Below the pieces are notes generated by a model. It did no database searches, had not been told where the DNA came from, and saw only the letters and a program-made list of their open reading frames with translations. Positions 16,697 through 21,108 of a DNA stretch of 25,532 nucleotides are shown here, one piece after another. Each line of letters starts with the position of its first letter. The first letter of the stretch is position 1. Made by a program: the position numbers and the translations under genes. The DNA is from Candidatus Nanopusillus sp. (lineage in GTDB: Archaea > Nanobdellota > Nanobdellia > Nanobdellales > Nanobdellaceae): positions 1-25,532 of the forward strand of contig JAPWTZ010000007.1 of the NCBI GenBank assembly GCA_028275775.1, given 5' to 3'.

Positions 16697-16702
16697 TTTT
16701 TT
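16697..16702 (+). terminator. Oligo-T tract (TTTTTT) immediately after the surface-protein stop codon
   Basis: A T6 run directly follows TAA (16694-16696). Oligo-T tracts are the usual archaeal termination signal. Confidence 0.4.
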
Positions 16703-16703
16703 A

Positions 16704-16751
16704 TCTGTTAGCTTTAATTCATCATTTTTCAGCCTGGGACGGTTTCTTCAT
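16704..16751 (-). ncRNA. Candidate C/D-box sRNA (C-12 nt-D'-3 nt-C'-11 nt-D)
   Basis: The minus strand reads AUGAAGA (C, 16751-16745), AACCGUCCCAGG, CUGA (D', 16732-16729), AAA, AUGAUGA (C', 16725-16719), AUUAAAGCUAA, CAGA (D, 16707-16704). The internal boxes are canonical and the 12-nt spacing is canonical. Each terminal box deviates at one position. It sits in a G+C-enriched island in a convergent intergenic region. Confidence 0.55.
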
Positions 16752-16753
16752 TT

Positions 16754-16807
16754 TGTACCCCTACTAACTCAACCTTTTTCATCTATCTAAGGTTACCCTA
16801 GTAGGGG
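16754..16807 (-). ncRNA. Imperfect hairpin followed by an ACA triplet (H/ACA-like element or 3'-UTR structure), contiguous with the C/D candidate
   Basis: A 9-bp stem pairs CCCCUACUA (16807-16799) with UAGUAGGGG (16766-16758). Next is a 4x4 internal loop (GGGU/GAGU), then a 4-bp stem AACC/GGUU, then a 16-nt loop UUAGAUAGAUGAAAAA. ACA sits at 16756-16754, exactly 14 nt after the upper stem. The element starts 1 nt after the TAG of the 16808-17335 gene. Confidence 0.35.
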
Positions 16808-17335
16808 CTATATATATCTTAGAAAATTAATTATTATATCTTTATTTAAAACTTCTGGATGGAACAATGAAAAATATATATTTTTATATTTATATAATAC
16901 AGGAATATTTTCTACTTTTCCAATTATATAGAATTTTTCATCAATCTTTGGAATTTTTGTTATTAAAAAATATGCTTCAAAATCTTTATTAATTATTTTA
17001 TCTTTATTTATTACTTTTACATAATATTTTCCAATCAATTCTTTATCTTCAAAATCATAATTTAATAATTTTATTAATATTTGGCTTCCAGAACATATTG
17101 CGAGAGTTTTTATATTGTTTTTAATTATAAATTCAAAATTCTTTATATAGTTTAAATAATCAAAATCCATTATTGCAGTACCTGTTATTATTATTTTTTC
17201 AAAATATTCATTTATTTTATCTTTATATGAAAAAACTTTATAATTAATGTTTAATTCTTTTAAAATATTTATTATTGGATATAAAAATTCATATTTTGAT
17301 AATTCTTCTTTATTTGTATGAATTATTCCAATCAT
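16808..17335 (-). CDS. Class I glutamine amidotransferase, stand-alone small subunit (GuaA-subunit-A-like)
   Basis: 175 aa with nucleophile elbow LAICSGSQIL (G-x-C-x-G-x-Q type) and C-terminal LFHPEV (His-x-Glu of the triad). The start forms an ATGA overlap with the upstream gene (17332-17335). Confidence 0.75.
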   Translation of the reverse strand: MIGIIHTNKEELSKYEFLYPIINILKELNINYKVFSYKDKINEYFEKIIITGTAIMDFDYLNYIKNFEFIIKNNIKTLAICSGSQILIKLLNYDFEDKELIGKYYVKVINKDKIINKDFEAYFLITKIPKIDEKFYIIGKVENIPVLYKYKNIYFSLFHPEVLNKDIIINFLRYI

Positions 17336-17997
17336 TCTAAATAAGCATCCTTTATAATATATTCTGCGTAATTTTTTTCTATCTTTATTTCATAATCTTT
17401 TATTATTATTCTTTTATTAAATAATGGTTGATATAAAACAAATGTTTCATATTCTCCTCCTTCTCCCGCAATATTTATTTTATATTTTTCTTTATATTCA
17501 ATTAATTTTTTTATTATATTTTCATCAACAACTTTTCCTAAAATATTTGTATCTAAAGGATATGTATACCATCCAACAATTATAAATTGAAAATTATTTT
17601 TCAATAATTCATATAAATATTCTTTTTCATCTTTTAACCATAATGGATTGAAACACCATAGATTTAATCTTTTACATATTCTTTGAAATCTTGATCCTTG
17701 ATATGTAGATCTAATTGCTCCAGTAACAATTCCATCAATGTTATATTTTTCTTTTAAATATTTTAATGCTTCAAATAATGTTTCTTCTTCATTATTATTT
17801 ATATAAAATCTTTCTATAGGTATATTTAATGCTTTTGATTGTAATTCAGTTAAATTATTATTAATATAATGATATAAATAACTTTCATTATTTTTTGGGA
17901 TTATATTTAATAGTACAGATATTTCATGATATTTTGATGCAATATATAATGAATAATTTGAATCTTTTCCTCCAGAATATAATACTGCAAGTTTCAT
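17332..17997 (-). CDS. dph6: Diphthine-ammonia ligase (Dph6 / MJ0570-DUF71 family N-type ATP pyrophosphatase)
   Basis: MKLAVLYSGGKDSNYSLY (PP-loop SGGxDS), ...ESYLYH..., DGIVTGAIRSTYQ, and the family-specific IAGEGGEYETFVL motif. Confidence 0.85.
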   Translation of the reverse strand: MKLAVLYSGGKDSNYSLYIASKYHEISVLLNIIPKNNESYLYHYINNNLTELQSKALNIPIERFYINNNEEETLFEALKYLKEKYNIDGIVTGAIRSTYQGSRFQRICKRLNLWCFNPLWLKDEKEYLYELLKNNFQFIIVGWYTYPLDTNILGKVVDENIIKKLIEYKEKYKINIAGEGGEYETFVLYQPLFNKRIIIKDYEIKIEKNYAEYIIKDAYLE

Positions 17998-18587
17998 ACA
18001 ATATTTTTTGGTATAGAGCTTATTAAATTATGTATTAAATTGTATAAATAATTTTCAGGTAATTTTTGATAAATTATATTACAATTTTCTGAATAACAAA
18101 AAACATTATTATTATATAAAAATACATCATCATTTACAATTATTATTGGATATGTTATATTTATATAATATGTTACATTTGAACAATATGGAAATTCAAT
18201 GCATCTTATCATTGGACACATTTCTCTTGGTTTACATGTTATATTACATGGATTTGGTAAACATTCTTCAATTGTTATACTATAATAAAATGTTTGATTA
18301 CAAAAAATAAATGAAGTAGTATTAATATATCCTACTAATGGTATTATATAATTTATCCCAGGTCCTTCATTTTTTATTATAAAATATCCATTTGTAATAT
18401 TATACTGATAACAACCTTTTCCATATAGATTCAATAAATATAATGACAAATTTTGATTATTTATTGTAATATTTGTTTTTTCTAAAACATAGTTATTATT
18501 AAAGTTTACATTATTTAATAAAAATATAAAAAATAAAATTAATATAGATATTATTCCTAGGATTATTGTATAAAAATAAGATCTCAT
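17994..18587 (-). CDS. Secreted/anchored Cys-rich, sequon-rich protein with an M-R-S + hydrophobic N-terminus (pilin-like class III signal candidate)
   Basis: I chose the start at M63 of the track ORF (ATG 18587-18585). The upstream 62 codons overlap the plus-strand CDGSH gene and look non-coding. The N-terminus is MRSYFYTIILGIISILILFFIFLL. There are about 14 Cys, including CLPNPCNITCKPREMCPMIRCIEFPYC, and about 8 N-x-S/T sequons. Its stop forms an ATGA overlap with the dph6 start. Confidence 0.65.
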   Translation of the reverse strand: MRSYFYTIILGIISILILFFIFLLNNVNFNNNYVLEKTNITINNQNLSLYLLNLYGKGCYQYNITNGYFIIKNEGPGINYIIPLVGYINTTSFIFCNQTFYYSITIEECLPNPCNITCKPREMCPMIRCIEFPYCSNVTYYINITYPIIIVNDDVFLYNNNVFCYSENCNIIYQKLPENYLYNLIHNLISSIPKNIV

Positions 18588-18625: not shown

Positions 18626-18802
18626 ATGGTAGAAATTGTAATAAAGGGATATGAAAACGGACCATATGAAATATCGGTAAATGGAGAAGTATTATATCAT
18701 TTATGTAGGTGTGGTAATTCACAAAATAAACCATATTGTGATGGAAGTCATAGAAAAGTTGGATTTCAGGCAAAATCTTTTGAATTAAAGATTAATAAAT
18801 AA
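18626..18802 (+). CDS. CDGSH-type iron-sulfur domain miniprotein, 58 aa; absent from the ORF track
   Basis: Manual translation gives MVEIVIKGYENGPYEISVNGEVLYHLCRCGNSQNKPYCDGSHRKVGFQAKSFELKINK. It contains a complete C-x-C-x2-S-x3-P-x-C-D-G-S-H signature. Confidence 0.85.
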   Translation: MVEIVIKGYENGPYEISVNGEVLYHLCRCGNSQNKPYCDGSHRKVGFQAKSFELKINK

Positions 18803-18903: not shown

Positions 18904-21108
18904 ATGGCTACTCTAACTGAAAGAATATTGCAAGTTATGAATAATCCGAATAATATAAGAAACATAGGTATAATTGCGCATATACATCATGGAAAGACAA
19001 CATTAACAGATTCTTTATTGGCAGGTGCAGGAATGTTGGCAGAAGAACTTGCAGGTGAGGCAATGTTTACATGGTGGCATGAAACTGAAAGAGAAAGGGA
19101 AATAACAGTATATGGGGCTGCAGTTTCAATGGTTCATAATTATGAAAATCAAGATTATTTAATAAATTTAATAGATACTCCAGGACATGTAGAATTTTCA
19201 GGACAGGTTACTAGAGCTGCTAGGGCAATTGATGGTGCAGTTGTTGTAGTAGATTTTGTTGATGGAATAATGCCTCAAACAGAAACTGTGTTAAGGACTG
19301 CATTAAAAGAATATGTAAAACCAGTATTATTTATAAATAAAACTGATAGAGCAATTACAGAATTAAAATTATCTCCACAACAAATTATGGAAAGGATTGG
19401 AAAAATAGTTATTGAAATAAATAGATTAATTGATAAATATTCTCCTCCAGAATTTAAGGGAAAATGGAATGTAAATGTAAATGATGGATCTGTTGCATTT
19501 GGATCTGCAAAATTTCATTGGGCATTATCAGTACCTTTTATGAAAAAATATAATGTTTCATTTAAAGATATAATTGAAATATATAATCAATTTTCAGAAG
19601 ATAAAGAAAAATTAAAGGAAGAAATGAGAAAAAGGGCACCAGTTGCAAAAGTTGTATTAGATATGGTTATAAGGCATTTACCCTCCCCAGTTGAGGCTCA
19701 AAAATATAGAATCCCCCATATATGGAAGGGAGATATAAATTCAGATGTTGGAAAAGCAATGTTGAATTTAGATTCAAATGGACCAATAGTAATAAATGTA
19801 ACAAATGTAATAATTGATAAGGTATCAAAACAAGAAATTGCAACTGCAAGAATATTTTCAGGTACATTATCAAAAGGAGATGATGTATATTTAATCCAGG
19901 CTGGAAGACAAATAAAAATACAACAGGTTGCTGTATGGAAAGGAATACAAAGAATAAATGTAGATTCTGTAAAGGCTGGTAATATAATTGCTTTAGTTGG
20001 GATAAGAGGATTATATCCTGGGGAAACAATTGTTGGAAAAGTTCAGGATCCAAAAAGTGTTGAAACATTTGAAGAAATGAAACATTGGTTAGATCCTGTA
20101 GTTACAAAATCATTTGAACCTAAGAATCCAAATGATTTACCAAAATTAATTGAAACATTAGATCTATTAACAAGAGAAGATCCAACAATAAAAGTTGAAC
20201 AAAACAAGGATACTGGAGAAATTTTGGTATCTGGTTTGGGAGATTTACATTTGCAAATAATAGAATATAGAGTACAAAATGATTTTGGAATACCTGTAAA
20301 GGTTGGGAATCCAATAGTAATTTATAGAGAATCTGTTAATGGAATTACACAAGTATATGAAGGAAAATCTCCAAACAAACATAATAAAATATATATACAA
20401 ATTGAACCTTTACCATATGAAATATATGAAAAAATGAGGGAATATATTAGGGAAGGAAAATTACCTGAGGGAAGGATTAAAAAAGAAGATGTATGGAAAG
20501 TATTTAATGAAATTGGATTTGATAAAGAAGAGGCAAGGAGGATTATAATGGTACATAATGGAAATGTATTGATTGATATGACAAGGGGTATTGTTCATTT
20601 ACCAGAAGTAATAGAATATATTGTAGAAGGATTTAAGGAAGTAATGAATCAGGGTCCATTAGCATGGGAACCTGGTATAATGATGAAAGTAAAATTAATT
20701 GATGCAGTATTACATGAAGATGCAATTCATAGAGGTCCTGCTCAAATAATTCCTGCAACAAAAGATGCAATTAAGAGTGCAATTCTTGAGCAACCAACAT
20801 TATATGAACCATTACAAGTTATAAGGATCGATACCCCTCCAGAAACTGTTGGAGATGTAACATCAATATTACAATCAAGAAGGGGACAAATATTAGAAAT
20901 GAATATTGAAGAAGAAAGAGCAACAATTAAAGCAAAAGTACCTGTAGCAAATATGTTTGGATTTACAGATGAATTAAGATCTGCAACATCTGGAAGGGGT
21001 GTTTGGTTCTTAGAAGATCAGGTATATGAAAAAGTTCCAAAGGATTTACAACAACAAATAATAGATTCTATTAGAAAAAGAAAGGGAATACCTGAGGGAG
21101 TTCACTAA
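18904..21108 (+). CDS. fusA: Translation elongation factor 2 (aEF-2)
   Basis: G-domain motifs AHIHHGKTTL, DTPGH and NKTD. Conserved domain IV holds the diphthamide loop LHEDAIHRGPAQIIP. 734 aa is the usual aEF-2 length. Confidence 0.95.
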   Translation: MATLTERILQVMNNPNNIRNIGIIAHIHHGKTTLTDSLLAGAGMLAEELAGEAMFTWWHETEREREITVYGAAVSMVHNYENQDYLINLIDTPGHVEFSGQVTRAARAIDGAVVVVDFVDGIMPQTETVLRTALKEYVKPVLFINKTDRAITELKLSPQQIMERIGKIVIEINRLIDKYSPPEFKGKWNVNVNDGSVAFGSAKFHWALSVPFMKKYNVSFKDIIEIYNQFSEDKEKLKEEMRKRAPVAKVVLDMVIRHLPSPVEAQKYRIPHIWKGDINSDVGKAMLNLDSNGPIVINVTNVIIDKVSKQEIATARIFSGTLSKGDDVYLIQAGRQIKIQQVAVWKGIQRINVDSVKAGNIIALVGIRGLYPGETIVGKVQDPKSVETFEEMKHWLDPVVTKSFEPKNPNDLPKLIETLDLLTREDPTIKVEQNKDTGEILVSGLGDLHLQIIEYRVQNDFGIPVKVGNPIVIYRESVNGITQVYEGKSPNKHNKIYIQIEPLPYEIYEKMREYIREGKLPEGRIKKEDVWKVFNEIGFDKEEARRIIMVHNGNVLIDMTRGIVHLPEVIEYIVEGFKEVMNQGPLAWEPGIMMKVKLIDAVLHEDAIHRGPAQIIPATKDAIKSAILEQPTLYEPLQVIRIDTPPETVGDVTSILQSRRGQILEMNIEEERATIKAKVPVANMFGFTDELRSATSGRGVWFLEDQVYEKVPKDLQQQIIDSIRKRKGIPEGVH

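Follow-up and report, generated by a model that had tools for sequence, protein, structure and literature searches.

Overlapping genes in Nanopusillus and other archaea may encode a two-subunit, glutamine-hydrolyzing diphthamide synthetase

The last step in making diphthamide, a modified histidine of elongation factor 2 (EF-2), is currently described as a ligation by Dph6 alone (EC 6.3.1.14), and its physiological nitrogen source has only been speculated on. We studied a stretch of 25,532 nucleotides from Candidatus Nanopusillus sp. (contig JAPWTZ010000007.1; by "the window" we mean this whole stretch), in which the gene for Dph6 overlaps a gene for a small class I glutamine amidotransferase (GATase). 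We think that these overlapping genes encode a two-subunit, glutamine-hydrolyzing diphthamide synthetase, and we put the probability of this at roughly three in four. With somewhat less assurance, we also consider it likely that many archaea make diphthamide with an unrecognized synthetase of this kind, whose dedicated glutaminase would derive from subunit A of GMP synthase (GuaAA) and would presumably stay inactive unless ATP and diphthine-EF-2 are bound to Dph6. If so, the Dph6 of the model organisms, which uses ammonium only, would represent a single solution among several and could be derived.

Both genes are on the reverse strand. Dph6 (diphthine-ammonia ligase, a PP-loop ATP pyrophosphatase), which is the proposed synthetase subunit, has 221 amino acids and is encoded at 17332..17997; its PP-loop SGGKDS (residues 8-13) is at 17959..17976, and GEGGEYET (residues 178-185) is at 17443..17466. 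The GATase, which is the proposed glutaminase subunit, has 175 amino acids and is encoded at 16808..17335. Its start codon shares bases with the TGA stop codon of Dph6 in an ATGA overlap (17332..17335). The nucleophile elbow of the GATase, AICSGSQ, is at 17081..17101, with the codon for the catalytic Cys81 at 17093-17095, and FHPE, which contains the catalytic His159 and Glu161, is at 16853..16864. The protein substrate, archaeal EF-2 (aEF-2, 734 amino acids, identified from its open reading frame [ORF] and its family match), is divergently transcribed from 18904..21108 on the forward strand, 907 nucleotides from the start of Dph6. Its diphthamide loop HEDAIHRG (residues 604-611) is at 20713-20736, with the target His609 at 20728-20730. 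A first-pass annotation, which was made from the letters of this DNA, had described the overlap, an intact Cys-His-Glu triad in the GATase, and an EF-2 gene with this loop about 900 nucleotides away. When we checked the ORFs, the family models, and the motif positions, its observation at 16808-17997 of the reverse strand was confirmed in every detail. The proteins encoded in the window are 92-98% identical to homologs from Nanopusillus spp., N. acidilobi, and "Nanobsidianus stetteri."

Judged by family models and alignments, 17332-17997 of the reverse strand encodes a bona fide archaeal Dph6, as had been proposed. The protein scores 247.7 bits against the equivalog model TIGR03679 (Dph6_archaeal), for which the cut-off is 197.3, and it matches PF01902 over its whole length (E about 1e-61 to 7e-61). 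It also aligns end to end with its ortholog PF0828 of Pyrococcus furiosus (3rjz; E 5e-55). Both the PP-loop and the EGGE motif are present, and GEGGEYET aligns with GEGGEFET of PF0828. The rest of the pathway is in place as well, with the target histidine of EF-2 in the window and Dph2 (split) and Dph5 in the gene table of the relative N. acidilobi. The median ratio of nonsynonymous to synonymous substitution rates is 0.11 for Dph6 and 0.13 for the GATase, so both genes are under purifying selection.

The score, the triad, and the predicted fold of the second protein all indicate a class I triad GATase, which we predict to be a glutaminase. It is barely above the gathering threshold of PF00117 (23.2 versus 22.8 bits). 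Its relatives and the GATase domains of natural fusions score 43-77 bits, and because relatives reach 77 bits, we view the weak score as a trait of this AT-rich lineage. An AlphaFold2 model that was built from an alignment of 121 sequences is confident, with a predicted local distance difference test score (pLDDT) of 96.7 and a predicted template modeling score (pTM) of 0.92. In a Foldseek search of the PDB, the top 50 matches of this model were all class I GATases, and the best were archaeal GMP synthase A subunits (2a9v with a template modeling [TM] score of 0.82, then 1wl8/2d7j and 2lxn). The catalytic residues are conserved across the family: in the 121-member alignment, cysteine is present in 119 of 121 sequences, histidine in 112, and glutamate in 120. 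Furthermore, the cysteine, the His-Pro-Glu motif, and the GxCxGxQ elbow are retained in over 90% of members, across pairwise identities of about 25-95%. The family also has signatures of its own. Where canonical GuaAA has an oxyanion strand of the GGP type, this family has ITGTAIMD (residues 50-57; 17165..17188), in which G52, T53, and D57 hardly vary. A further motif, E16-F17-x-x-P20 (17276..17290), is invariant and lies where helix 1 begins. E16, F17, P20, G52-T53-A, and D57 are candidates for residues that line an interface or a channel.

Although the GATase resembles GuaAA, it does not belong with the canonical proteins. It scores 24 bits against NF001975 (cut-off 198) and 23.8 bits against TIGR00888 (cut-off 172), and more generally its scores against the GuaA-N, GuaAA, PdxT, and HisH models are about 24 bits, far under their cut-offs. 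No family member among the 121 that we sampled approaches the cut-off of a GuaAA model; the best E-value in this sample for NF001975 was 4.6e-22. In the other direction, a profile of the family matches GuaAA of Methanocaldococcus jannaschii at E 3e-16, and the closest GuaAA of solved structure scores 63 bits against it. We compared the family to 120 canonical GuaAA proteins from a homology search that was seeded with a fragment of M. jannaschii GuaAA from a PDB alignment. The median pairwise identity is 39% within the family and 27% between the family and GuaAA (maximum 42%), and the nearest neighbor of a family member is never a GuaAA. The first-pass annotation had pointed to clustering with bona fide GuaAA as a reason to abandon its proposal. 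Instead, the GuaAA clade excluded every family member in 99 of 100 neighbor-joining bootstraps. With one PdxT sequence as the outgroup, the family itself was recovered as monophyletic in just 30 of 100 bootstraps, and we regard the separation from GuaAA as the only solid result of the tree. Together with the model scores, it indicates that the GATase is a diverged paralog of GMP synthase subunit A, in a separate group from canonical GuaAA. We also considered whether the GATase might be PdxT, HisH, or TrpG and rejected these identities because all were far under the model cut-offs. PdxT is further excluded because Archaeoglobus profundus has its own PdxS/PdxT just downstream of the pair. Neither NCBIfam (June 2026) nor Pfam has a dedicated model for the family, and its members are currently named "glutamine amidotransferase-related," "GMP synthase-like," "hypothetical," or "GMP synthase - glutamine amidotransferase domain."

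The genomic context of the two kinds of protein also differs. Three canonical GuaAA controls adjoin the ATP pyrophosphatase (ATPPase) subunit of GMP synthase (GuaAB) or stand alone, and none is beside Dph6. For example, in a metagenome-assembled genome (MAG) of Ca. Iainarchaeum (L123, 3044-4582), guaAB and guaAA abut in the order ATPPase then GATase, next to a CTP synthase. MAGs from the Archaeoglobaceae have a canonical GuaAA that is about 60% identical to the M. jannaschii protein; the Dph6-linked GATase of A. profundus is apart from these and falls in the Dph6-linked family.

The two genes stay together in other genomes too. We retrieved loci with the family profile from three sources. Among GTDB contigs with one genome per species, which gave 31 loci from Nanopusillus, Nanobsidianus, Nanobdella, YN1, and MAGs of Woesearchaeota/Nanoarchaeia, Dph6 is immediately upstream on the same strand in all 31. 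From a scan of metagenomes we kept the best 80 loci, of which 9 end too near the GATase to tell; in 69 of the 71 informative loci, Dph6 is upstream on the same strand, either directly (66 loci) or at 0.8-1.6 kb with an inserted gene (3 loci). Dph6 is also upstream in all nine targeted look-ups, which covered Nanobdella aerobiophila, strain YN1, a 43%-identical ENA contig, the cultured A. profundus, and MAGs labeled as Thermoprotei, Bathyarchaeia, or Aenigmarchaeota, and the genes around the pair are otherwise unrelated between these loci. Overall, the records name Nanoarchaeota/Woesearchaeota, Aenigmarchaeota, Bathyarchaeia, "Thermoprotei" MAGs, and A. profundus. The adjacency that the first-pass annotation had asked about is therefore conserved. 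At the level of ORFs, 90 of 110 loci have the same 4-nucleotide overlap, which persists down to about 30% identity of the GATase; the others have another overlap (3), a gap of at most 60 nucleotides (7), a larger gap (9), or an in-frame fusion (1). Where the pair is not contiguous, both flanking genes keep the same orientation despite the inserts, which are a 386-amino-acid ORF (L067, 1727-2887), a PIN gene plus a small ORF next to it (L125, 1579-2192), two small ORFs (L100, 2387-3000), a 252-amino-acid ORF that overlaps both neighbors (L121, 2246-3004), and membrane proteins (L113, 1515-2915).

The two proteins are also found as one. When 1.84 billion representatives were searched exhaustively with HMMER, 312 family members were found at E <=1e-10, and among the best 150 of these, 4 are single Dph6-GATase chains of 400-470 amino acids. 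Pfam finds both domains in these chains, with the GATase at the C terminus, and the triads are intact. The fusions come from at least 4 lineages that are under 50% identical to each other (P0174, P0179/L082, P0222, and P0264/P0268). They are rare, with 1-2 members per 90% cluster, and one of them sits on a 91-kb contig. We considered whether they could be frameshift artifacts and ruled this out because their linkers add 20-65 residues and do not reflect a 1-nucleotide slip across the ATGA.

We examined metabolic context in the complete gene table of N. acidilobi, whose proteins are 94-96% identical to those of the window. According to PMC4935971, this organism is unable to produce nucleotides, cofactors, amino acids, or lipids. 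The single entry named GMP synthase in its table is the GATase (Nps_03130), and the single PP-loop entry is Dph6 (Nps_03125). By name, the table has no GuaAB, IMP dehydrogenase, NAD synthase, or carbamoyl-phosphate synthase, and no glutamine synthetase or ammonium transporter. Besides Dph2, Dph5, and EF-2, it does list a CTP synthase; in such enzymes, as the Iainarchaeum control shows, a GATase domain is already fused to the synthase. None of the names that we searched gave another candidate acceptor in the table. The first-pass annotation had reasoned that a GuaA-like GATase in a reduced genome without purine biosynthesis needs another partner and that Dph6 is the obvious one. The N. acidilobi table, which has no second GMP synthase entry, GuaAB, or IMP dehydrogenase, agrees with this. 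The emphasis on reduced genomes does not hold up, because the pair is also found in free-living A. profundus and near IMP dehydrogenase in Aenigmarchaeota, so it is no specialty of such genomes. In the latter case (L127, from the Aenigmarchaeota MAG JACQIC010000089.1, 4852-5352), IMP dehydrogenase is 3.5 kb from the pair, which implies that the pair also occurs in organisms with guanine-nucleotide synthesis and raises the question of whether the GATase is shared with GuaAB.

As an aside on the diphthamide pathway, Dph2 is split in the terrestrial Nanoarchaeota (Nst 222-440 and Nps 3285-2235) and is listed as absent from Nanoarchaeum equitans (PMC4935971), which is nevertheless said to have a DUF71/Dph6 homolog (PMC3541065). 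The state of the pathway in N. equitans looks inconsistent between these two sources.

How might the two proteins work together? We expect the ATGA overlap to give coupled, roughly equimolar translation of the two subunits. Dph6 uses ATP to adenylate the diphthine carboxylate at His609 of EF-2, a chemistry that is established for Dph6. The GATase would dock on Dph6 and hydrolyze glutamine with its Cys81-His159-Glu161 triad. The ammonia would be handed to the active site of Dph6, where it would displace AMP to give diphthamide. The two-subunit GMP synthetase of M. jannaschii forms a transient complex in which ammonia is tunneled, and its glutaminase becomes active once the ATPPase has bound its substrate. 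By analogy, the GATase would probably be activated by substrate-loaded Dph6. In a symbiont such as this, whose relative's table lists neither a glutamine synthetase nor an ammonium transporter by name, glutamine from the host could be the practical nitrogen donor.

Several observations weigh against this proposal. Comparative genomics supports a two-subunit, glutamine-dependent enzyme as far as such evidence reaches, and from there we infer the complex, the ammonia tunnel, and the use of glutamine by analogy. For Dph6 of yeast, ammonium by itself is said to suffice. In our alignment with the P. furiosus enzyme, the Dph6 of the window has no insertions that would be specific to a partner. For the fused protein P0222, a single-sequence AlphaFold2 prediction (no alignment) had a pLDDT of just 35.6 and yielded no usable model of the interface. 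Two of the metagenome loci (L107 and L119) have no Dph6 within 0.4-1 kb upstream of the GATase. Nine of the 121 family members do not have the catalytic histidine and instead have tyrosine (6), serine (1), asparagine (1), or an alignment gap (1). These members keep the cysteine, the glutamate, and the adjacency to Dph6 (for example, FSPEV in L004 and L025, from the L004/L025/L074 lineage), and their glutaminase activity may have been lost or altered. Also, a separate canonical GuaAA from A. profundus was not, by name, among the 120 proteins that our search returned. Finally, the proteomics table of N. acidilobi gives no values for either Nps_03125 or Nps_03130.

We considered four other explanations. 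The GATase might be a partner that serves Dph6 without being a catalyst, or by catalyzing another reaction; it could be a scaffold or chaperone for EF-2 binding, an amidase, or a deamidase. About 8% of the family does not have the catalytic histidine, the canonical GGP strand is replaced by GTA, and Dph6 alone is regarded as sufficient if ammonium is present. Also, the amidation of diphthine in eukaryotes needs a non-catalytic helper, Dph7 (PMC3541065). But it would be surprising for such a partner to conserve the cysteine, HPE, and the elbow in over 90% of its members, to have a complete GATase fold that is predicted with such confidence, and to be under purifying selection as strong as that on Dph6, so we consider this unlikely. 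Another idea is that the pair amidates a carboxylate other than that of diphthine, in which case the Dph6 would be a functional variant of DUF71, as has been proposed for the DUF71 subfamily of B12 salvage. This is quite improbable given that the protein is above the equivalog cut-off for archaeal Dph6. Furthermore, it is the only named PP-loop entry in N. acidilobi, which has Dph2, Dph5, and an EF-2 with the target histidine and has no cofactor biosynthesis. If this Dph6 did something else, then the diphthamide pathway of N. acidilobi would be without its last enzyme.

The two remaining explanations, to which we give very little credence, would make the link to Dph6 incidental. In one, the GATase is a plain GuaAA that serves GuaAB, and its proximity to Dph6 is historical or a matter of co-expression. 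It is true that its nearest relatives by sequence and by fold are GuaAA proteins, that M. jannaschii GuaAA shares 30-44% identity with its C-terminal half, and that annotators have named it as the GATase domain of GMP synthase; the IMP dehydrogenase on the Aenigmarchaeota contig would fit as well. However, N. acidilobi makes no nucleotides and has no GuaAB or IMP dehydrogenase in its table, the family is far below the GuaAA cut-offs and splits from GuaAA in the tree, and the Archaeoglobaceae have a canonical GuaAA from which the Dph6-linked protein of A. profundus is distinct. Also, the fusions join the GATase to Dph6 and never to GuaAB, while the canonical GuaAA controls are away from Dph6. 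In the other, unrelated housekeeping genes are merely cotranscribed, and the GATase serves another, unlinked enzyme. Compact archaeal genomes do pack unrelated genes into overlapping operons, and in the window, an upstream gene for a membrane protein overlaps Dph6 by ATGA too. But that upstream gene and EF-2 are lost outside of Nanopusillus-like genomes, while the pair persists from Nanoarchaeota to Archaeoglobi. Chance cotranscription also does not account for the independent gene fusions, or for the maintenance of the orientation of both genes despite mobile or toxin-antitoxin insertions. A glutaminase subunit for Dph6 remains our preferred explanation.

The upstream gene just mentioned (17994..18587, reverse strand) encodes a Cys-rich protein with an N-terminal transmembrane helix and is the first gene of a local three-gene operon, as its stop codon overlaps the start of Dph6 as ATGA. 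Counted from an internal ATG, the protein has about 197 amino acids. A mechanical list of ORFs had a version of 259 amino acids with a TTG start, which is probably over-extended because it would overlap the neighboring CDGSH gene (see below). The protein has many N-glycosylation motifs, has no match in Pfam or NCBIfam, and is kept only in Nanopusillus/Nanobdella-like genomes (40-88% identity); Nps_03120, its N. acidilobi counterpart, carries the label "Uncharacterized protein, 1 TM." A gene for a CDGSH-type zinc-finger (iron-sulfur) protein of 58 amino acids separates the operon from EF-2 (18626-18802, forward strand); Nanobdella, YN1, and N. acidilobi (Nps_03115) have it as well. We examined the EF-2 neighborhood as possible evidence of function and rejected it. 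EF-2 is adjacent to the pair only in Nanopusillus, Nanobdella, and YN1-like loci, so we view this as local synteny of such genomes.

Two RNA genes or elements in the window deserve mention. Directly 3' of the GATase stop codon (16700-16808, reverse strand), there is a non-coding element of about 100 nucleotides, with a GC content of 0.36 as compared to about 0.17 in its surroundings. The element hardly changes between Nanopusillus and Nanobdella/YN1, although the flanking proteins are only 67-78% identical. It begins with a 5' hairpin (GCCCCUACUAGGG...UAGUAGGGGU) that has compensatory changes between lineages, and this is followed by AUGAAGA, 12 nucleotides, CUGA, AAA, AUGAUGA, 12 nucleotides, and AGAU/CUGA; archaeal C/D box small RNAs are laid out in this way. 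In Rfam, nearly all of the sub-threshold matches on this strand are archaeal C/D box families (snoPyro_CD, sR52, sR9, sR17, and others), and none reaches the gathering score. The other is an archaeal 16S rRNA gene (RF01959, 327 bits), of which the 5' end lies at 1-396 of the reverse strand and the rest is cut off by the edge of the window. Because the rRNA gene is there, the listed ORF at 70-510 of the forward strand is spurious.

If our proposal is correct, then there is a second, glutamine-hydrolyzing form of diphthamide synthetase, and a whole family of small proteins that are misannotated as GMP synthase-like or are not annotated at all would gain a function. It would also explain why there is an otherwise inexplicable GATase in the 0.6-Mb genomes of symbionts that make no nucleotides, and it would remove a false call of purine metabolism from metabolic reconstructions of DPANN archaea. 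A member with a protein substrate would join the ammonia-channeling enzymes. To our knowledge, it would be the first of the triad GATases to supply ammonia to a protein side chain that carries a post-translational modification. In a full-text search of the literature, we did not find any paper that links diphthamide or Dph6 to a class I GATase, GuaA, or glutamine dependence, and arCOG00090 was mentioned in none of the papers searched. What is new is the unrecognized subunit and the unusual protein acceptor. Amidation by PP-loop enzymes and the combination of a glutaminase with a synthetase are known, so the concept was partly anticipated. The idea can be tested directly with proteins from the cultured A. 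profundus or Nanobdella aerobiophila.

Glutaminases that feed ammonia to an ATP-dependent activating subunit with a large substrate are familiar from GatCAB and GatDE, which act on tRNA-bound Glu or Asp, and from MurT/GatD, which acts on lipid II. Their synthetase folds are unrelated to Dph6, and we know of none that acts on the modification of a protein side chain. A closer parallel is the archaeal two-subunit GMP synthetase (M. jannaschii; PH1346 of Pyrococcus horikoshii), to which the first-pass annotation had likened the layout, and the likeness is real. The glutaminase has the same fold and triad (TM about 0.8, and the profile match at E 3e-16), its partner is a PP-loop enzyme that adenylates its substrate, and in the Iainarchaeum control, the genes abut in the same order. 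Also, natural or engineered fusions of GMP synthetase are active. On the other hand, the acceptor of GMP synthetase is xanthosine monophosphate, while here it would be a modified histidine on a protein of 734 amino acids, with Dph6 as the enzyme. The GATase belongs to a separate clade with EFxxP and GTAxxD and fails the GuaAA models, and in the fusions with Dph6, it is C-terminal.

Variation in the nitrogen source of Dph6 has been considered before. When de Crecy-Lagard et al. predicted Dph6 in 2012, they noted that NH3 might come from different sources in different organisms, and they described fusions of AsnB (a class II glutamine amidotransferase [GAT-II] plus a PP-loop domain) to DUF71 in a few archaea and of RidA to DUF71 in eukaryotes (PMC3541065). 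Those fusions are similar to ours in that the NH3 source of Dph6 varies and can be a fused glutaminase. They differ in that the added part is a class II (N-terminal nucleophile) amidotransferase with a second PP-loop domain, or RidA, and in being found in few organisms; here it is a separate class I triad GATase, which is usually a distinct gene whose translation would be coupled to that of Dph6. A class I GATase partner of Dph6 is not mentioned in PMC3541065. As for the enzymes known as EC 6.3.1.14 (YLR143W of yeast, PF0828 of P. furiosus, and PH1257 of P. horikoshii), the Dph6 of the window is a full-length ortholog of these and would perform the same last step. They are described as single polypeptides that use free ammonium, whereas here there is a dedicated gene or domain for a putative glutaminase. 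If this is confirmed, then Dph6 and the GATase together would be a glutamine-hydrolyzing (6.3.5-type) enzyme.

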